Shown piece after piece: positions 31,905-40,346 of a stretch of 47,825 nt of DNA. The notes beneath the pieces are model-generated. The model had not been told where the DNA came from, made no database searches, and was given only the letters and a program-made list of their open reading frames with translations. This DNA is from Candidatus Limnocylindrales bacterium (lineage in GTDB: Bacteria; Chloroflexota; Limnocylindria; Limnocylindrales; CSP1-4). The translations under genes were made by a program, and so were the position numbers. Each line of letters opens with the position of its first letter. The first letter of the stretch is position 1. The stretch is from positions 1 through 47,825 of the forward strand of contig JBBSAS010000001.1 of NCBI GenBank assembly GCA_038252055.1, read 5' to 3'.

Positions 31905-32158
31905 GCACGCCGAGTGAACGCCCGGCCCGCCCCGCCACGGGGGCCGCGGAACAGGCCCAGGAGCCAGCGATGAGCATCCAGCCCGAGCCGGAGTCTGCCC
32001 CCGCACCGCGCAGCCCGGCCATCGCGTCCTCGACGAGCGACGCGCCGCGGCCGTCCCGGCGGACGCTCGCGATGCGGTCGTTCCTGCCGGTCCAGGCCTG
32101 GCGGTTCCTGGTCATCAACCTCCGCATGGCCCGGATCATCTTCAAGCCGCACGACTGA
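31901..32158 (+). CDS. small protein translationally coupled to the SQR-like gene (tentative)
   Basis: ATGA overlap at 31901-31904. A disordered Pro/Ala-rich N-terminus, then RSFLPVQAWRFLVINLRMARIIFKPHD. I recognise no family. Confidence 0.3.
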   Translation: MSTPSERPARPATGAAEQAQEPAMSIQPEPESAPAPRSPAIASSTSDAPRPSRRTLAMRSFLPVQAWRFLVINLRMARIIFKPHD

Positions 32159-32252
32159 CCCGGACGCCGGGGCGCGGGGGCCGCGAACGGCCCGGAGGCC
32201 GGCCCAGACCGGTCCGGACGACCTGCCCGCGACCCGTCCGGCGGGCGCAGCC

Positions 32253-33596
32253 TTACCCGGCGAGGAGTGGAATCCGCACCTCGAAGCGGGCTCCACGATC
32301 GGCGCGATTGGCGGCGCTGATCCGGCCGCCATGCTGCTCGACGATCCACGCGGCGATCGCGAGGCCGAGCCCGGTCCCGCCCGAAGGGGCGTCGTCGGCC
32401 CGCCAGAAGCGCTCGAAGACGCGGGGCAGGTCCTCGTCGCGGATCCCAGGCCCTTCGTCATCGACCCGGAGGACGGCCGTGTCGCCGTCCGGCTGCACGG
32501 AGACAATGACGGCCCCCCCGGACGGCGTGTGGGCAACGGCATTGTCGACGAGGATCGCGACGAGCTGGCGGAGGCGAAGGGCGTCGCCCCGAACCTCGGC
32601 GGGGAGCGGGTCCACCGTCAGCGCGACGCCTCGCCCCATAGCCACGGCGGTCAGGCCGCCGGCGGCCTCCACGGCGACGTCGGCGAGGTCGACCAGGGCG
32701 CTCTCGACCTCGATCGTGCCCGCATCGGTCCGGGCCAGGATCAGGAGGTCGTCGACAAGCGCCGTGAGGTGGGTGGTTTCGGCGTCGATGTCCTCGAGGG
32801 CGGTCCCGACCGACCCGACCGCCTCGTCGCGATTGCGCGCGAGGTCGGTGACGCTGGCGCGGATGACCGTGAGTGGCGTGCGCAGCTCGTGGCTCGCGTT
32901 GGCGGCGAACTCGCGCTGGCGCTGCAGGGCTGCCTCGCGGCGGTCGATCGCCGAGCGGATCGGGACGAGGGCCCGGCCGGCGTAGAGCCAGCCGGCGGCG
33001 ATCGCGAGGACGCCCGCCGCGAGGCTCCCGAGGACGAGGACCCCGAGGAGAACGGCGAGGAGACGCTGCTCGGAGAGCCGTTCTCCGATCACCTGGACCA
33101 CCCAGGTTCCGCCCCGGCGAGCGACGGCGATCGAGTAGACCCGGATCGGCGTCTCGTCGAGCGTCGCCGTTCGCGTGTCTGTCCCGCTCGAGGCCGCCCG
33201 GGCGGCCCGGACGGACTCGTCGATCGGCAGCTCCGTGGCCTCGTCGAGGCCGCCGAGGACCGATCCGTCGGGTTGCACGGCGAGGGTGATCGTCCCGGAC
33301 TGCTCGCCGCCGAAGGCGAGACCGAAGGGCGGCCGGTTCGGAAGGGGACCGGGGCGACTGACGACCTTGGCGACGTCCTCTGCCCGCTGACGGAGGATCG
33401 CCGTGCCGCTGGTTGCGAGCTGGCCCGCGACCGCCCCGTACACGAGGGCACCGAGCGCCAGCAGGATGACGAGCGTCAACCCACCGCTCCAGGCCATGAG
33501 GCGGACACGGGTCCGGCGCAGGAGGATGCGGTCGCCGGACCCGCTTCCCGCCGTCGGCTCGGCCCCGACTGGCGCGGCACCCGGCCGGCCCGTCAT
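32253..33596 (-). CDS. sensor histidine kinase (two TM segments, HAMP, HisKA, HATPase)
   Basis: ATG 33596 lies 1 nt after the RR stop. H box FAANASHELRTPLT, N box VDNAVAHTP, G boxes DDEGPGI and GGTGLGLAIA. Confidence 0.85.
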   Translation of the reverse strand: MTGRPGAAPVGAEPTAGSGSGDRILLRRTRVRLMAWSGGLTLVILLALGALVYGAVAGQLATSGTAILRQRAEDVAKVVSRPGPLPNRPPFGLAFGGEQSGTITLAVQPDGSVLGGLDEATELPIDESVRAARAASSGTDTRTATLDETPIRVYSIAVARRGGTWVVQVIGERLSEQRLLAVLLGVLVLGSLAAGVLAIAAGWLYAGRALVPIRSAIDRREAALQRQREFAANASHELRTPLTVIRASVTDLARNRDEAVGSVGTALEDIDAETTHLTALVDDLLILARTDAGTIEVESALVDLADVAVEAAGGLTAVAMGRGVALTVDPLPAEVRGDALRLRQLVAILVDNAVAHTPSGGAVIVSVQPDGDTAVLRVDDEGPGIRDEDLPRVFERFWRADDAPSGGTGLGLAIAAWIVEQHGGRISAANRADRGARFEVRIPLLAG

Positions 33597-33597
33597 C

Positions 33598-34266
33598 TCA
33601 GCGCTCCCGGACGCGGTAGCCGACGCCGCGGACCGTCTCGATCCACGCGGCCCCGTCGGGACCGAGCTTCGTCCGCAGCAGGTGGATGTAGGCCTCGACG
33701 GTGTTCGGGGTGAGGGCCGCACCGTACGGCCAGGCCTGGTCGAGCAGCTGGTCGCGCGAGAGGATCTGGCCCGGGCGGCGGAGGAGGCACTCCAGGATCG
33801 CGTACTCGCGCTGGCTCAGGTCCACGGGCCTCCCGGCGACGGAGACCCGGCGCTCGCTCTCGTCGAGGACGATCGGCCCGGCCCGCAGGGTGAGACCACG
33901 GCGCGGCGCCGGGCGGCGCCCGAGCGCCCGGAGGCGGGCGAGCAGCTCCTCGTAGGCGAAGGGCTTGACGAGGTAGTCGTCTGCCCCGGCGTCGAGGCCC
34001 TCGACCCGGGCCGTCACGGCGTCGCGCGCGGTGAGCATGAGGATCGGCACGGCCGAGCCGCGCTCGCGGAGCCGCCGGGCGATGTCGAAGCCGGAGCCGT
34101 CCGGGAGGCCGACGTCGAGGATGATCGCGTCCGGATCGGCTACGGCGGCGAGCTCCAGCCCGTCTGCCATCGTGAGGGCGCTGTCCACGACGTGGCGGTC
34201 CTGGGTCAGGAGGCGGGTGAGAAGGCGGACGAGCCGCGGGTCGTCCTCGACGAGGAGAAGGTGCAC
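33598..34266 (-). CDS. OmpR-family response regulator (canonical receiver)
   Basis: GTG 34266 gives VHLLLVEDDPRLV... with AIILDVGLPDGSG, LMLTARD, DDYLVKPF, and the wHTH TVRGVGYRV. Confidence 0.85.
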   Translation of the reverse strand: MHLLLVEDDPRLVRLLTRLLTQDRHVVDSALTMADGLELAAVADPDAIILDVGLPDGSGFDIARRLRERGSAVPILMLTARDAVTARVEGLDAGADDYLVKPFAYEELLARLRALGRRPAPRRGLTLRAGPIVLDESERRVSVAGRPVDLSQREYAILECLLRRPGQILSRDQLLDQAWPYGAALTPNTVEAYIHLLRTKLGPDGAAWIETVRGVGYRVRER

Positions 34267-34288
34267 GGAAGCTCCCGGGGGGTCGGGG

Positions 34289-35167
34289 CTACGAGCCGGC
34301 GCGGGCGACGAGGTCGGCCGCGGCGCCGATCGGGATGGCGAAGCCGATCCCCTGGCCGTCACCGGCCGAGGTGGCGATGATCCCGACGACGATCCCCGAG
34401 AGGTCGAGGAGTGGTCCGCCACTGCTGCCGGCGTTGATCGCGGCGTCGGTCTGGATGAGCTCGTCGAGGGCCACCCGTGTTCCCGTGGACGGGTCCGTCA
34501 TGTCGATCGAGCGCCCGAGGCTCGAGACGATCCCCGAGGTCACGGTGTCGGTGAACTCCCCGAGGGGGCTGCCGACCGCGACGACGCGTTGACCCACGAC
34601 CAGGGTGCTGCCGCTGGCGGCGAGGCGCGCCGGTGCCAGGCCGGTCGTGGCGGTTCGGAGCAGGACGAGGCCACGGGCAGGATCGCTGGCGACGACCTCG
34701 GCCGTGGTCTCGCGCTGGTCGGAAAGGAGGACCGCGTACGTCGTGTCGAGGGGGGCGGCGATCGCCGTGGTGAGGATGAGTCCGTCGGCGGAAACGATGA
34801 CGCCCGAGCCGCCCAGGATGGCCCGTCGGCGGGTCGCGACGTCGGAGATCGTGACGACCGACGCCTCGGCCGCGCCGGCGACCGCGACGACGGCGTCCTC
34901 CCCGACGACGGCCACCGTCGTGACGGCGGACGGTGGTTCGGTGGCCGTGACCACGGCGGCGGTTGGCAGCGGTCCGGCCGTGGGCGCCGTGACAAGGAGG
35001 AGGCCGGCAGTCCCGCCGCTCGCGAGGGCGGCGGAGAGGACCGCCGAGGCGAGGACCATCCCCGGGGAGACCCCGCTGGTGGAGCGCGTCCGCCGGCCCG
35101 GCGAAGGGGTTGCCGGGGTGGGGCCGGGCACGGGCGAGCCGGCCTGCGCCTGGGGATCAACGGTCAT
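34289..35167 (-). CDS. HtrA/S1C-like protein lacking the catalytic His and Asp and lacking a PDZ domain (pseudoprotease)
   Basis: ATG 35167 with GGAGAGAGG RBS and an N-terminal TM anchor. The fold blocks GSGVIVSADGLILT and TDAAINAGSSGGPLL are present. TNxHVV is TTAIAA and DxAxL is GLVLL. The whole 292-aa product contains no histidine. Confidence 0.75.
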   Translation of the reverse strand: MTVDPQAQAGSPVPGPTPATPSPGRRTRSTSGVSPGMVLASAVLSAALASGGTAGLLLVTAPTAGPLPTAAVVTATEPPSAVTTVAVVGEDAVVAVAGAAEASVVTISDVATRRRAILGGSGVIVSADGLILTTAIAAPLDTTYAVLLSDQRETTAEVVASDPARGLVLLRTATTGLAPARLAASGSTLVVGQRVVAVGSPLGEFTDTVTSGIVSSLGRSIDMTDPSTGTRVALDELIQTDAAINAGSSGGPLLDLSGIVVGIIATSAGDGQGIGFAIPIGAAADLVARAGS

Positions 35168-35210
35168 GCGGCCTCTCTCCGAGCGGATGTCGAGAACGTT
35201 CCCGCGAGCC

Positions 35211-36035
35211 TCACCATACGGTCGTATTCTGAAGTGCATCTGAAAACGGCGCGCCAGCGCGCCGCTCGGAGACCGTCGTGGCTCCGGCGAGCACCCCGCC
35301 GACCAGGTCCGACCAGGTGACGAGGCCCGCCTCGTCGATCGCGAGGACGCCGAACCCCTCTTGGCGCGCCACCCAGCCAGGGCCCTGGCCACCCATCGCG
35401 AAGGCCGCCGTGGCGTACGCGTCGGCGGTGCCGAGGTGGGGGCCGAGCACGGTGACGCTCACGAGGCCCGAGGCCCCGGCGCCGGTCCGTGGGTCGCGGA
35501 TGTGGCTCCCGCGCTCGTAGTGGCCGGACGTCGCGACGGCGTTATCGCGGATCTCGAGGACTGCGGCGAGGGCTCCGCGATCCCCGGGGTGGCGGATCCC
35601 GACCCGCCAGGGCATTCCCGGCTCGGGCTCGCCGCGGACGACCGCGTCCCCGCCCGCGTTGATCGAGAAGGCGGTCGCTCCCGCCGCCGCGAGCAGGTCG
35701 GCGGCCTCGTCCACGGCCCAGCCCTTCACGAAGCCCGATGGATCGAGCCCGCCGTCGGGGCGGTGCCGGCGGACGTCGAAGACGCCGTTGCTCGCCTGCC
35801 GGAGATCCTCGCAGGTCCGGAGGACGTGCCGCACGTCCGGGTGGCAGTCATCGAGGGGCAGCTCACCGCGATCGAGGCGGCGGATCTCGCTGTCGTCGCG
35901 GAAGGTGCTGAAGCGGGCGTCGACCGCGTGGAACCAGGCGACGGCGCGCTCGACGGCCGCGTCGATTGGACCATCGGCAGAGCGGACGTCGATCGAGACG
36001 ACCGTGCCCATCACCCGTTCCACGCGGGCTGCCAC
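35211..36035 (-). CDS. apbE: FAD:protein FMN transferase (ApbE)
   Basis: MGTVVSIDV..., DPSGFVKGWAVDEAA, AVATSGHYERG, TADAYATAAF are ApbE-typical blocks. Confidence 0.8.
   Translation of the reverse strand: MAARVERVMGTVVSIDVRSADGPIDAAVERAVAWFHAVDARFSTFRDDSEIRRLDRGELPLDDCHPDVRHVLRTCEDLRQASNGVFDVRRHRPDGGLDPSGFVKGWAVDEAADLLAAAGATAFSINAGGDAVVRGEPEPGMPWRVGIRHPGDRGALAAVLEIRDNAVATSGHYERGSHIRDPRTGAGASGLVSVTVLGPHLGTADAYATAAFAMGGQGPGWVARQEGFGVLAIDEAGLVTWSDLVGGVLAGATTVSERRAGAPFSDALQNTTVW
35227..35244 (-). promoter_or_regulatory. direct repeat TTCAGAT-N4-TTCAGAA (gene orientation) upstream of the pseudoprotease-RR-HK operon
   Basis: 11-bp periodicity, 60-77 nt upstream of ATG 35167. Overlaps the last codons of apbE. 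Confidence 0.5.
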
Positions 36036-36038
36036 CGG

Positions 36039-36584
36039 TCAGGAGCGGGCGGCGTCGAGGGCCGCCTGCAGGGACTCCTCGTACGCCAGGCTCGTGTACG
36101 TCGCCCCGGACAGGACGCCGACGTCGGCATGCTGGGCCTTGAGCGCGGCGCTCCGAAGGATCGGTTCCGCGCGACTGCTGATGTCCGCGGAGTGCCGGTC
36201 CCCGGTCGGCAGCTGGAGAGCGGCGATGTCCGTGATCGTCCCGCCCGAGATCGTGACCTGGACCTGCACCGGGCCGTACGGCGTCTGCGCCGCCGAGCCC
36301 GCGACCGTCCCGTCCCGGTAGCCGGCGGCGGGTGCCGCGGTGGCGGGAGCGGATGTGGCCGGGTCGGGCACCGCCGTCGCGGCGGGCGCGTCCACCGGCG
36401 GGTCGGAGGCAGCCGGGGCAACGCTCGGGCCGGGCGTCGCGGCCGCGACCGGCGCGGGACTCGCGATCGCTACCGGCCCCGCGGCGCTGGTGGCGACGGG
36501 CAGGTCGGTCGGCGTCTTGAAGGAGAGGAGAAGGGCGAGGGCACCGATCGTGAGGAGGATGGCGAAGGCGCCGCGTCTGGGCAT
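36039..36584 (-). CDS. exported FMN-binding domain protein (flavinylation motif SGAT present)
   Basis: N-terminal anchor MPRRGAFAILLTIGALALLL and a Pro/Ala linker. The FMN_bind-like C-terminus has VLSGATYTS (36099-36110), the [ST]GA[ST] site used by ApbE. Confidence 0.75.
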   Translation of the reverse strand: MPRRGAFAILLTIGALALLLSFKTPTDLPVATSAAGPVAIASPAPVAAATPGPSVAPAASDPPVDAPAATAVPDPATSAPATAAPAAGYRDGTVAGSAAQTPYGPVQVQVTISGGTITDIAALQLPTGDRHSADISSRAEPILRSAALKAQHADVGVLSGATYTSLAYEESLQAALDAARS

Positions 36585-36598
36585 GGTCAGCTCCGGGT

Positions 36599-38026
36599 TC
36601 AGTGGTTGAAGCGTTCGAGATGGATCTGGGCGCGTGGAACCCCGAGCGAGCGGAGGGACCGCTCGGCGGCGGCCATCATCGGGTGCGGGCCACAGAGGTA
36701 GACATCGCGTTCACGGAGGTCGGGGACGAGCCCCACCAGCGCGTCGGGGCCGAGGGGCTCCGCACCCACGCCGGGGTCGCCACGGTGGCCGACCAGGTAG
36801 TGGATCGTCGCGCCGCGGGCGCGGGCGATCGCGTCGAGCTCGTCGCGGAATACGACCTCGGCGGCATCACCCGCCCGGTAGACGAGGTCGAGCTCGCCCG
36901 GACCCGCGGGGAGGGACTCGAGGAGCGCACGGAGGGGAGTGATCCCAACGCCACCGGCCACGAGGAGGACGCGGCGTTGGGTCCGCCGCGCGCCCGTCAG
37001 GACGCCGTACGGCCCCTCGAGGAGGACGCGCGTGCCGAGGGGGACCTCCTGGAGCCGTCCGCTCGTCCAGTCGCCGAGGCCCTTCACGGTGAACCGGAGG
37101 AACCGGCCGTTCGGCGACGCCGAGAGAGAGAACGGGTGGGCCCGCCACCAGCCGTCGGCCGTGAGGAGGCGGACGTTGAAGAACTGCCCGGATCGGACGG
37201 CGAGCCGGTCGAGGTCGCGCCCGGTCACGTAGAGCGAGACGACGCGGGGCGCTTCCACGACCCGGTTGGCGATCACGAAGCGGTGCCGGATCACGAGCGC
37301 GGCCGGCTGGCCGAACCGGAAGGCAAGGACGAGGGCCGCCGTGATCGCGTAGAGGCTGATCCAGAAGGCCACCGCCACCGGATCCGCGATGAAGTCCGCG
37401 CCGCCGGAGAGCTGGTGGGCGAAGGCGAGGGCGATCCCGAGGTACGCGTAGAGATGGAGGCCGTACCAGGTCTCGTACGAGAGACGCCGCCGCGCGGCGC
37501 GGATCGAGCTGACCGTGACCAGGACGAAGAGGGCGAACCCGGCGCCGGCGAGGAGGACGAACGGATACGTCCCGAGGAAGGTGATCGTCTGGTCGACGAG
37601 GCCGCGACCGCTGCCGAGCGCGTACCCCGCGGTCGTCGCGACGACGTGGCCGCCGATGAGCCACGCGGTGGCGAACCCGAGCCAGCGGTGCAGCCAGGCG
37701 AGGCGGTCGGGTCCGATCACCTGGTCGAGGAAGGGGCTGCGGGACATCAGGACGAGCTGCAGCAGCGCGGCGTAGGTTCCGAGGAGGGCGGCGAGCTGGC
37801 CGGCCGCGGTGAGGATCCCCGCGGGAGAGCCGAGCTCGGCCGCGTTGCCGTGCCGGATCCACATGAGGACGATGAGCACCGCGATCCCGCTGGCGATCGC
37901 GCCGAGGTCGGCAGCGCGGATGGCCCACCGGCGGGGGAGCGGCAGCGGCCTGGCATCGGGAGCGGTGCCCGGCGCGGAGCGGACGGTGGCGCGCGGAGGA
38001 GCGGCGGGTCGGATCGCGTCGAGCAT
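36599..38026 (-). CDS. NOX-like ferric reductase: 6-TM di-haem domain fused to an FAD/NAD(P)H-binding domain
   Basis: ATG 38026 (MLDAIRP...). His pairs HRWLGFATAWLIGGH (13 apart) and HLYAYLGIALAFAH (12 apart). HPFS FAD motif, GGVGITP and CGP nucleotide motifs. Confidence 0.8.
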   Translation of the reverse strand: MLDAIRPAAPPRATVRSAPGTAPDARPLPLPRRWAIRAADLGAIASGIAVLIVLMWIRHGNAAELGSPAGILTAAGQLAALLGTYAALLQLVLMSRSPFLDQVIGPDRLAWLHRWLGFATAWLIGGHVVATTAGYALGSGRGLVDQTITFLGTYPFVLLAGAGFALFVLVTVSSIRAARRRLSYETWYGLHLYAYLGIALAFAHQLSGGADFIADPVAVAFWISLYAITAALVLAFRFGQPAALVIRHRFVIANRVVEAPRVVSLYVTGRDLDRLAVRSGQFFNVRLLTADGWWRAHPFSLSASPNGRFLRFTVKGLGDWTSGRLQEVPLGTRVLLEGPYGVLTGARRTQRRVLLVAGGVGITPLRALLESLPAGPGELDLVYRAGDAAEVVFRDELDAIARARGATIHYLVGHRGDPGVGAEPLGPDALVGLVPDLRERDVYLCGPHPMMAAAERSLRSLGVPRAQIHLERFNH

Positions 38027-38094
38027 CGGTCGTCCCTGCTGGCGGATGACGGAGGCACCCGGTGAGGCCCGGGACCCGGTGATCGTCGGGGGCG

Positions 38095-38113
38095 ATCCTG
38101 AAACCATCCTGAA
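38095..38113 (-). promoter_or_regulatory. direct repeat TTCAGGA-N4-TTCAGGA (gene orientation) upstream of the NOX-like operon
   Basis: The plus strand reads ATCCTGAAACCATCCTGAA. 11-bp period, about 70-87 nt upstream of ATG 38026. Confidence 0.55.
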
Positions 38114-38171
38114 CCCCGGCGACGACCCGCCCGTCTGTCCGGGCAGTTCCGACGACTTGTCCGCCGCGCGA

Positions 38172-38189
38172 TTCAGGACCCCTTCAGGG
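38172..38189 (+). promoter_or_regulatory. direct repeat TTCAGGA-N4-TTCAGGG upstream of the DUF5666 gene
   Basis: Same box family on the opposite strand of the divergent intergenic region, 86-103 nt upstream of ATG 38275. Confidence 0.55.
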
Positions 38190-38274
38190 TGGGAGGGCCA
38201 TCCTCGTCGCGTCGGGGTCCCTCCTTCCACGCCGACTCGCGTTCCATTCCGGGGAGGATCCAGGAGAAACCCAC

Positions 38275-39423
38275 ATGGACCAGGAACTGACGACGGGGGC
38301 CGACGAGCCGACCACCGGGGGCGGCCAGCCGACCACCGGGTCCGGCGAGCCAGCCTCGGGAGGTCCGGGCCGCCGGACCGTCGGTGTTGCGCTCCTCGCC
38401 GGGGCGATCGGCCTCGCGGCCTTCGCCGTCGCCTTCGCGGCCGGAAGTGGCACGCCGGCCCAACCTGCGGCACAGGAGGCACCGGCAGTCGGCGCGCCGG
38501 TCATCTCGACGACCGCCGGCTGGACCGCGCCCAGCAGCCGGCAGACCGGCGCCTTCGATGGCCGCGGCGGACCGGGCGAGGGCTGGGGGCGCCAGGGCAA
38601 CGCCACGATCTCGATCACCGCGATCGACGGCTCCAAGCTCTCGCTCCAGACCGACAACAGCTGGACCCGCACGATCGACGCGACGGGCGCGACCGTGACG
38701 AAGGACGGGAAGACCGTCACCACCTCCGCGCTGGTGGTCGGAGACCGGATCGCCTTCAGCGAGACCCGTAACGCCGACGGGACCTACAAGATCACGGCCA
38801 TCCAGGTGGTCCAGCCGACCGTCAGCGGCACGGTCGCCTCCGTCTCAGGGTCCACGGTCACGGTGACCACTCGCGACGGCGGGACCCAGAAGGTCGTCCT
38901 CACCGGCAGCACGACGTACCAGGTCGGCGGCCAGGCCGGGACGAAGGACGCGGTCGTGGCCGGCGCCGTCATCATGGCGAGGGGCACCCTCGCGTCCGAC
39001 GGCACGCTGACGGCGACCGCGATCACGGTGGCTCCGGCAACCGCTGCCGGGACGGTCAAGGAGAAGGGCGCCAGCTCGATCACCCTCACCCTCCGCGATG
39101 GCTCGACGCTCGTCGTGAAGGTCACGTCCGCCACCACCTACCACGTGGCGGGGATCACCTCGCCGACGCTCGCCGACGTCGCCATCGGGGCAACGGTCAC
39201 GGCCTCGGGCACGAAGAACGCCGACGGCTCCTTGACCGCGACGATCGTTCGCTCGCGGGCGGCCGGCCAGGACGGCGGCCCGGGCATGGGCGGCTGGGGC
39301 CGCGGCGGCCACGGGCGCGGCATGGGCGGGTGGGACGACGATGGGATGCCGGGCTGGCCCGGCGGGCCGGACGCGTCGCCGGCGCCCTCGATCGCTCCGT
39401 CGAGTGGGAGCACGAACGGCTAG
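38275..39423 (+). CDS. membrane-anchored DUF5666-like repeat protein with a Gly/Trp/His/Met-rich tail
   Basis: A TM segment (VGVALLAGAIGLAAFAVAFAA). Then three roughly 65-aa beta-rich repeats (e.g. VSGTVASVSGSTVTVTTRDGGTQKVVLTGSTTYQV... and AAGTVKEKGASSITLTLRDGSTLVVKVTSATTYHV...). The tail is GGPGMGGWGRGGHGRGMGGWDDDGMPGW. Confidence 0.7.
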   Translation: MDQELTTGADEPTTGGGQPTTGSGEPASGGPGRRTVGVALLAGAIGLAAFAVAFAAGSGTPAQPAAQEAPAVGAPVISTTAGWTAPSSRQTGAFDGRGGPGEGWGRQGNATISITAIDGSKLSLQTDNSWTRTIDATGATVTKDGKTVTTSALVVGDRIAFSETRNADGTYKITAIQVVQPTVSGTVASVSGSTVTVTTRDGGTQKVVLTGSTTYQVGGQAGTKDAVVAGAVIMARGTLASDGTLTATAITVAPATAAGTVKEKGASSITLTLRDGSTLVVKVTSATTYHVAGITSPTLADVAIGATVTASGTKNADGSLTATIVRSRAAGQDGGPGMGGWGRGGHGRGMGGWDDDGMPGWPGGPDASPAPSIAPSSGSTNG

Positions 39424-40346
39424 GACCGGGCCCCGCGCGGCCGATCGACGCCCGGGCGGGACCCGCTCCCACCCGGGCGTTCCTGTATCTCGCGCCCGAA
39501 TCGGCGGATCGTCGTGTTGAAGTCCGCGGGTCGATCCTCGTTGACGAGGTGGCCCGTGCCGGCGATCAGGTCCCTCCGCCCATCGGCGGCGACCGCGAGA
39601 AAGCTGTCCTCGTCGAGCCGGAAGATCGGGTCGTCCGCTCCGTTGAGGATGAGCGTGGGCCCCGGGTAGGCGGCCAGCCGCGGGGCAAACGACTGGCGCA
39701 GGGCCCACGCCGTCGCCCGCCCTCCGCCCTTGAAGAGCCAGCCCCGCGTCGCGGGCAGAGTGTTCGACGGTGCTCCGTGCCGGCGACGGCGGATCGGCAG
39801 CCTCGATCGGGTGAGGCGCTCGCGTCCGGCGCCGAGCAGGTACGACCCGACCGTTCCGGGTGCGTGGCGCAGGATCGTGCGGGGCTCGGCCGTCGCGTTG
39901 ACGAGGACGAGCCCCGTGACGAGCTCCGGGCGGCGCGCAGCCACGTCCATCGCCACGTAGCCGCCGAGCGACTGACCGACGACGGTCGCCCGGCCCCCCG
40001 TGGCCTCGATGACGGCCGCAACGAGGCCGGTTGCCCGCGTCATTCCGAACGGGACGTCGGCTAGGATGCCGTGCCCAGGGAGGTCGACGGCCACCGTGCG
40101 GAATTCGTCCGAGAGCCCGTCCACCTGGTGGCGCCACATCGCCCGTGTCCGGCGGGTGCCGTGGAGCAGAACGACGACCGGGGCGTGCTCCGGGCCCGCC
40201 ACCTCGGCGATCTGCTCGAGGGACCAGGTCGTCAGGCCGGACCCGTCGCGCAGCCCGCGACCGGCACGGTCCGGGCTAGTCGTGGCGGTCTCCTTGGGTC
40301 GACGCGAGCGAGACCCCCGGGCGCGCGGCATCGTCCTCGCCGGCAT
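39420..40346 (-). CDS. alpha/beta-fold hydrolase (start uncertain)
   Basis: VVVLLHG, nucleophile elbow GQSLGG, and a C-terminal GHLVNEDRP. The annotated start overlaps the upstream LemA fragment, so the true start is probably further downstream. Confidence 0.7.
   Translation of the reverse strand: MPARTMPRARGSRSRRPKETATTSPDRAGRGLRDGSGLTTWSLEQIAEVAGPEHAPVVVLLHGTRRTRAMWRHQVDGLSDEFRTVAVDLPGHGILADVPFGMTRATGLVAAVIEATGGRATVVGQSLGGYVAMDVAARRPELVTGLVLVNATAEPRTILRHAPGTVGSYLLGAGRERLTRSRLPIRRRRHGAPSNTLPATRGWLFKGGGRATAWALRQSFAPRLAAYPGPTLILNGADDPIFRLDEDSFLAVAADGRRDLIAGTGHLVNEDRPADFNTTIRRFGREIQERPGGSGSRPGVDRPRGARS

Follow-up and report, generated by a model that had tools for sequence, protein, structure and literature searches.

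Tandem TTCAGG direct repeats as probable operators of an OmpR/PhoB-family response regulator in uncultured soil Chloroflexota

The pho box of PhoB lies about 10 bp upstream of the −10 element, where it takes the place of the −35 element, and activates transcription with the geometry that we describe below. The CiaR box of streptococci, TTTAAG-N5-TTTAAG, stands ~10 nt upstream of the −10 element (PMC3091779, PMC10197876), the BqsR box of the Pseudomonas aeruginosa BqsRS (CarRS) system reads TTAAG-N6-TTAAG (PMC4358008), and PhoP of Mycobacterium tuberculosis binds TCACAGC-N4-TCACAGC, two 7-bp repeats 4 bp apart, as a tandem dimer in head-to-tail arrangement (PDB 5ED4; PMC4832192). Here we consider a direct repeat, TTCAGR-N5-TTCAGR (R, purine; ‘the box’), in a stretch of 47,825 nucleotides from a Candidatus Limnocylindrales bacterium (assembly GCA_038252055.1, contig JBBSAS010000001.1, positions 1 to 47,825; the whole stretch is referred to as the window). 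Its copies are very probably docking sites of the OmpR/PhoB-family response regulator encoded beside them at 33598-34266, and the cell-envelope regulon that they appear to mark is small and is conserved in uncultured Chloroflexota of soil.

Among described systems, the CiaRH regulon seems to us the best functional analogue and the BqsR box the nearest motif. In common with CiaRH there is an OmpR-family regulator and a hexameric direct repeat with a 5-nt spacer, ~10 nt upstream of −10; the half-site (TTCAGG here, TTTAAG there), the recognition helix (NTVEAYIHLLRTKL here, VVEVYVSKVRKKL in CiaR) and the phylum (Chloroflexota rather than Firmicutes) differ. The BqsR pentamers are likewise 6 nt apart with an 11-bp period, in a box that overlaps the −35 of activated promoters and serves an autoregulated operon, and the half-site TTAAG departs from TTCAG by a single base, the third (A in place of C). 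The Fe(II)-sensing RExxE motif of BqsS, however, is not found in the translated extracytoplasmic segment of the kinase studied here, and the target genes are different. The 7 bp plus 4 bp architecture of the PhoP site is the same, whilst its half-site sequence is not; the physiology differs too, the present regulon containing no phosphate genes. The motifs of Streptomyces CutR (TAWATAAA; PMC12802291) and Corynebacterium glutamicum MprA (TKTTAAGAAM; PMC12113857) were considered as matches and rejected, being unlike TTCAGG.

The window holds three copies of the box:

35228-35244, minus strand: box 1, TTCAGATGCACTTCAGA, 60-77 nt 5′ of the ATG at 35167, in the promoter of the trypsin-like, regulator and kinase genes

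38097-38113, minus strand: box 2, TTCAGGATGGTTTCAGG, 70-87 nt 5′ of the ATG at 38026, in the promoter of the NOX-like, FMN-binding and ApbE genes

38172-38188, plus strand: box 3, TTCAGGACCCCTTCAGG, 86-103 nt 5′ of the ATG at 38275, in the DUF5666 promoter

Boxes 2 and 3 are divergent and separated by a gap of 58 bp. The first-pass annotation had placed three tandem boxes at these coordinates and in these orientations; all three were found again, and shuffling excludes chance as their origin. Exact matches to TTCAGR-N5-TTCAGR number three in the window against a mean of 0.00 in 100 dinucleotide-preserving shuffles, and a search allowing one mismatch returns the same three sites (shuffle mean 0.19). 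Of the window's 16 TTCAGR hexamers, six make up the three tandem pairs, and the 11-bp period is exact in all three boxes and in 71 distinct related sites. That annotation had also called for a genome-wide search for the tandem box and for its conservation in relatives with the same gene neighbourhood. The assembly of this organism (2.34 Mb in 527 contigs, 72.5% G+C, 86.65% complete) contains six exact boxes, where ~0.07 would be expected from the hexamer frequency. Three extra one-mismatch matches in the same genome are dismissed as chance, since they are without a −10-like hexamer and their number equals the control rate. Within the genus sample, 23 of 24 relatives carry boxes, with ~70 boxes against ~5 matches for a reversed-pattern control, and five near-complete relatives carry three to five each, for a control count of 0. 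Where the neighbourhood is the same the boxes are kept, with half-sites that stay constant while the spacers drift. Matches in a small-genome sister family were set aside as chance, being single, with three of them within one conserved coding sequence.

The genes concerned are these:

32253-33596, minus strand: sensor histidine kinase (Pfam HisKA, HATPase_c), with two predicted membrane helices around an extracytoplasmic domain of ~135 aa

33598-34266, minus strand: OmpR/PhoB-family response regulator (Pfam Response_reg, E 4e-27; Trans_reg_C, E 4e-24), the proposed reader of the box

34289-35167, minus strand: trypsin/HtrA-like membrane-anchored protein (Pfam Trypsin_2), the first gene behind box 1

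35211-36011, minus strand: ApbE-family flavin transferase (Pfam ApbE, E 6e-48), whose 3′ end bears box 1

36039-36584, minus strand: membrane-anchored FMN-binding-domain protein (Pfam FMN_bind)

36599-38026, minus strand: NOX-like ferric-reductase-domain flavocytochrome (Pfam Ferric_reduct, FAD_binding_8, NAD_binding_1), the first gene behind box 2

38275-39423, plus strand: signal-anchored DUF5666 repeat protein (Pfam DUF5666), the gene behind box 3

The six genes on the minus strand adjoin one another and would be transcribed in the order NOX-like, FMN-binding, ApbE, trypsin-like, regulator, kinase. Box 1 is not intergenic: it falls within the last 11 codons of the ApbE open reading frame (stop codon 35211-35213). 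The original description of three operons each headed by a box therefore holds for three box-bearing promoters, one of which, that of box 1, is internal to the ApbE 3′ end. Since the six genes are contiguous and no terminator is found at the ApbE/trypsin-like junction, three promoters do not necessarily mean three operons. A terminator scan of 32000-39700 gave a single terminator-like match, inside the NOX-like gene (37135-37149).

In the ten same-genus genomes whose regulator is 86-90% identical (group A), boxes occur at the same places, with constant TTCAGG half-sites and variable 5-nt spacers. Box 1 has an orthologue at the same place in all ten, and box 3 is kept in all ten as TTCAGGACnnnTTCAGG, including those genomes without the NOX operon at the locus. 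Box 2 is kept in the four relatives with the same synteny (L031, L032, L037, L038) and is also found before NOX homologues in two other loci (L081, L100). The NOX-like, FMN-binding and ApbE genes are absent from the locus in six group-A genomes, in which the boxes of the trypsin-like and DUF5666 genes stay, pointing apart. When the regulator is ~77% identical (group B), a box after ApbE heads an operon of HlyD-like adaptor, ABC ATPase, FtsX permease, small membrane protein, regulator and kinase; this layout is shared by a 62%-identical regulator homologue, with the box TTCAGGACTCCTTCAGT. Across group A, group B and the 62% homologue there is thus a box upstream of the regulator's own operon. 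In more distant relatives (L040, L043-L045, L047 and most of L121-L188; regulator ~62-80%), the regulator and kinase end a box-headed HlyD-like/ABC/FtsX operon, and a box-bearing HtrA-like gene often lies just upstream of it.

A set of 80 further loci (830 kb), from metagenome-assembled genomes (MAGs) of uncultured Chloroflexota, mostly Candidatus Limnocylindria/Limnocylindrales from soil, fen and peat, gave no match to the reversed-pattern control. Boxes upstream of the regulator share its direction there, and the only boxes on the opposite strand are those of the divergent DUF5666 gene. In most loci without an exact box the homologous place is taken by one that has a single mismatch, generally a C or T as the sixth base of the second half-site. 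This reduces the core to TTCAG-N6-TTCAG, in which each pentamer is preferably followed by G. The genes behind the boxes were scored for the 94 boxes with A at position 28. For 93 of these, a homologue of one of five families lies no more than 420 nt downstream on the same strand: trypsin-like (36), HlyD-like ABC-exporter adaptor (28), DUF5666 (15), NOX-like (7) and the regulator itself (7).

The flanks of the 71 distinct aligned sites contain one conserved block and no other, at positions 27-32, with the consensus yAnAmT (C/T, A, n, A, A/C, T; the first A is present in 51 of 71). This block lies 9 nt 3′ of the box and resembles a −10 hexamer. A purine at position 40, again in 51 of the 71 sites, is the likely transcription start. 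No sequence is conserved at ±11 or ±22 bp from the box in this alignment, where extra half-sites would fall. For the window the prediction is as follows:

35213-35218, minus strand: TATGGT, predicted −10 for box 1, 9 nt after the box and overlapping the ApbE stop codon; predicted start ~35205

38082-38087, minus strand: GACGAT, predicted −10 for box 2, 9 nt after the box; predicted start ~38074

38198-38204, plus strand: CCATCCT, predicted −10 region for box 3, 9-10 nt after the box; predicted start ~38211

At the offset of the box 2 hexamer the relatives read GATGAT, GACGAT or GGATGG. The hexamer of box 3 is the weakest of the three, and relatives read GATACA(T) there. By this reckoning the box spans about −39 to −23 of the predicted start, with its half-sites at about −39 to −34 and −28 to −23. 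These promoters have no −35-like hexamer, and no sigma-70 consensus promoter was found in the 7.7 kb scanned (32000-39700).

Taking these features together, we propose that the kinase senses an extracytoplasmic or envelope cue and phosphorylates the regulator, which would bind as a head-to-tail dimer with one winged-helix domain on each TTCAG(G) half-site, 11 bp apart. Because the box lies 9 nt 5′ of the −10-like hexamer and the −35 is missing, the bound dimer would most likely recruit RNA polymerase in the manner of PhoB, BqsR and CiaR (class II activation). Under this scheme the first of the window promoters, an internal one at the end of ApbE, would drive the system's own trypsin-like, regulator and kinase genes and so provide positive autoregulation; the second would serve the electron-export genes for the NOX-like, FMN-binding and ApbE proteins, and the third the divergent DUF5666 gene.

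The alternative that survives best keeps the same regulator but makes it a repressor, which would occupy the −35 and spacer region and block RNA polymerase, so that autoregulation would be negative and an inactive kinase would lead to derepression. There is precedent in CutR, which represses htrB from −17 (PMC12802291). However, promoters without a −35-like hexamer or sigma-70 consensus are typical of activator dependence, and the same geometry activates in CiaR, where the repeat is 10 nt from −10 (PMC3091779), and in BqsR, where it overlaps the −35 (PMC4358008). That the distance to the −10 is fixed at 9 nt also points to a stereospecific contact with RNA polymerase, and less to plain occlusion. 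PhoB, with this geometry, is likewise an activator. We consider repression unlikely, if the most credible of the alternatives.

Which protein reads the box is a separate matter. In all the gene arrangements seen, the regulator goes with the box, and no other DNA-binding protein does so throughout. Alignment shows the canonical DD, D(ILDV), T and K residues in its receiver domain, and those orthologues that were aligned or read all have the same recognition helix, NTVEAYIHLLRTKL. Of the proteins with a solved structure, M. tuberculosis PhoP is nearest to it (E 2e-41). Among NCBIfam models RppA scores highest, with 199.7 bits where the cut-off is 250, and no MprA-specific model is among the top matches; neither the regulator nor the kinase reaches an NCBIfam equivalog. 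We compared box number with the best regulator match in 121 genomes of the family:

Orthologue of at least 73% identity: 20 genomes, 19 with at least one box, 3.05 boxes per genome

Homologue of 62-72% identity: 69 genomes, 28 with at least one box, 0.64 boxes per genome

No homologue at E 1e-75 or better: 32 genomes, 5 with at least one box, 0.16 boxes per genome

No genome of the last class exceeds one box, and its average of 0.16 is close to what the control gives. As related genomes are not independent, the co-occurrence of box and orthologue is to be read as a trend and not as a P-value.

A paralogue of the regulator provides a further line of argument. In two genomes (G004 and G012) a paralogue of 64-65% identity has TTCATG-N5-TTCATG directly in front of it, again with an 11-bp period (L076, G004:C1:152370-152386; L077, G012:C8:191111-191127), 9 nt before a CCTGAT or CCCGAT hexamer. 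Among five genomes searched, this variant occurs in those two only. G004 contains a third TTCATG site, which lacks a −10-like hexamer and is probably due to chance. The recognition helix of the box-associated orthologues aligned or read is NTVEAYIHLLR, that of the paralogues NSVDAYVAFLR; a HMMER alignment places the T/S and L/F substitutions opposite PhoP Val213 and Tyr220. Both are among the six base-contacting side chains in the PhoP-DNA crystal structure (PMC4832192). PhoP Arg237 in the wing and Asn212, Glu215 and Tyr217 in the helix are conserved in the regulator studied here, whereas Val213, Ser216 and Tyr220 are replaced by Thr, Ala and Leu. Since the variant box of the paralogue goes with a helix changed at positions aligned with base-contacting residues of PhoP, the pair amounts to an apparent natural specificity swap, and it is the strongest argument of a non-experimental kind. 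The paralogue box ends ~25 nt before the ATG, which suggests that the leader there is very short or absent.

These observations bear on a second alternative, in which the boxes are read by some other transcription factor encoded elsewhere, for instance another OmpR-family regulator of the genome, and the adjacent two-component system is merely a target. Each genome has dozens of OmpR-family paralogues (up to six strong matches per genome among those listed), and sequence by itself cannot assign a site to a protein. Nevertheless, the box heads a regulator-containing operon in every arrangement seen, the number of boxes tracks the presence of the regulator's orthologue, and the paralogue's variant box is found only in the two searched genomes that carry the paralogue, so that another reader seems to us improbable. 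That the repeats are not protein-binding sites at all, being instead chance occurrences, remnants of small repeat elements or part of an alternative-sigma promoter, is a general possibility for which the sister-family matches in coding sequence offer an example of chance, but it can be given hardly any credence in view of the very large enrichment over shuffles and the reversed control, the conservation of half-sites and −10 block alone while spacers and flanks drift (unlike a mobile repeat), and an 11-bp-phased duplicate element that is no feature of sigma-factor promoters.

Several points do weigh against activation by the adjacent regulator. A box over about −39 to −23 of the predicted promoters is compatible with occlusion, and so could equally repress. 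The −10 assignments are consensus-based, and the hexamer of box 3 is poor (CCATCC). In box 1, alone among the copies, both half-sites end in A (TTCAGA), and every group-A relative has G at this sixth position; because this otherwise conserved G is replaced, the autoregulatory site may be weaker in this strain. An exact box is missing from one genome that has the orthologue (G044), one or two boxes occur in a few genomes that have no close orthologue (two in G022), and kinship among the genomes means that the co-occurrence statistics overstate the significance. Even so, the best joint explanation is that the boxes are operators of the regulator at 33598-34266, with the bound dimer, the geometry and the class II activation as proposed, and we regard this as likely. 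It had been suggested in the first-pass annotation that the adjacent regulator autoregulates and co-controls the NOX-like/FMN-binding/ApbE genes and DUF5666; conservation, −10 spacing, co-occurrence and the paralogue all lend this support. Its regulon of three units was drawn too narrowly: those units are indeed box-headed, but further boxes occur elsewhere in the genome and the genus.

The other three boxes of this genome lie outside the window, at C469:534-550, C130:139-155 and C480:1347-1363. The first, on the minus strand, is followed by TAGGAT and then, after 7 nt, by the ATG of a Pro/Ala-rich, Cys-containing membrane-anchored exoprotein; a −10-like hexamer so near the ATG suggests a leaderless mRNA. 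Orthologues of this exoprotein in L082 and L093 are likewise preceded by a box. Across the genus the box also recurs before the HlyD-like adaptor and its ABC exporter, before secreted intradiol-dioxygenase-like lipoproteins and before one further lipoprotein. The organism's own assembly, 86.65% complete, yielded no HlyD-like homologue.

The trypsin-like protein invites comparison with MprAB-PepD of Mycobacterium, CutRS/CssRS-HtrA of Streptomyces (PMC12802291) and CpxRA-DegP of E. coli, in each of which a two-component system of the OmpR family has genetic linkage to an HtrA-family gene and controls it along with further envelope functions. As in MprAB-PepD, an HtrA-like (Trypsin_2) gene adjoins the two-component genes; here, at 34289-35167, it lies directly upstream of the regulator. 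The difference is that the protease-like gene precedes the regulator here and its product appears catalytically dead: in the translation TTAIAA stands for the expected TNxHV and GLVLL for D(L/I)A(L/V)L, whilst GSSGGP is kept, and because the catalytic His and Asp positions are substituted the protein looks inactive. It has no PDZ domain, and the NCBIfam HtrA models match below their cut-offs. The CiaRH system shares a small, envelope-oriented regulon with an HtrA-type gene, but the HtrA-like protein described here is without the catalytic His and Asp, and a flavin-based electron-export module, DUF5666 and an HlyD/ABC exporter would be further members.

The Limnocylindria are abundant, uncultured Chloroflexota of soil and peat, and we know of no experimentally defined regulon for them. 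The mechanism proposed is an ordinary, textbook OmpR/PhoB one; the half-site, the target set and the possible small RNA described below are, as far as we found, undescribed for the lineage. What would be gained is a testable wiring diagram with one sensor, one regulator, a 17-bp site and some five to eight promoters, which joins a NOX-like reductase and its flavinylated partner, DUF5666, a dead HtrA-like protein, a MacAB-like exporter and a candidate small RNA. That these extracytoplasmic parts share one control suggests a single physiological response to which they all belong, and offers a handle on the function of DUF5666 and the pseudoprotease. The paralogue pair (TTCAGG and TTCATG; HL and AF in the helix) would furthermore be a case of specificity divergence after duplication in the OmpR family. 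It is conceivable, and we put it forward tentatively, that the system is the master switch of an envelope/extracytoplasmic-redox stress response in soil Limnocylindria, with a dedicated trans-acting small RNA. That switch would also bring a flavinylated NOX-like electron-export chain under sensor control, possibly with the dead HtrA-like protein as a co-sensor for the kinase.

The small RNA is predicted directly after a box and its −10 at two places in the genome:

C480:1210-1326 (locus L070), minus strand: candidate small RNA, ~120 nt

C130:2-120, minus strand: candidate small RNA, ~120 nt

All copies of the element have three hairpins, the third being an intrinsic terminator, and the downstream genes vary between genomes. 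Hairpin 1 has a C/U-rich loop on a stem that co-varies (CUCGG/CCGAG, CGCGG/CCGCG, CCCGG/CCGGG), and hairpin 2 has an invariant CCUCCUCCC loop. Two of the hairpin loops read CCUCCUCC(C), which is anti-Shine-Dalgarno sequence, and we infer a candidate regulator-dependent small RNA with anti-Shine-Dalgarno loops. The CiaRH regulon likewise has small RNAs with unpaired regions complementary to the Shine-Dalgarno sequence, with five per genome rather than the one candidate here; if the prediction holds, the element is a convergent counterpart of the CiaR-dependent csRNAs. We know of no regulator-controlled small RNA in the Chloroflexota, though no literature search was aimed at this point. Rfam contains no matching family: its one match, to ar14, is weak (32.7 bits, where the gathering score is 58.8). 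When ten genomes of the genus were sampled with a covariance model, each yielded one copy, and all 11 strong copies in the genus are preceded by a box; elsewhere in the order the model returns a single weak, partial match without a box. C130 and C480 are nearly identical copies of the locus, each with the box, the small-RNA candidate and the start of an NmrA-like gene, and this duplication probably reflects assembly redundancy or strain variation within the MAG.

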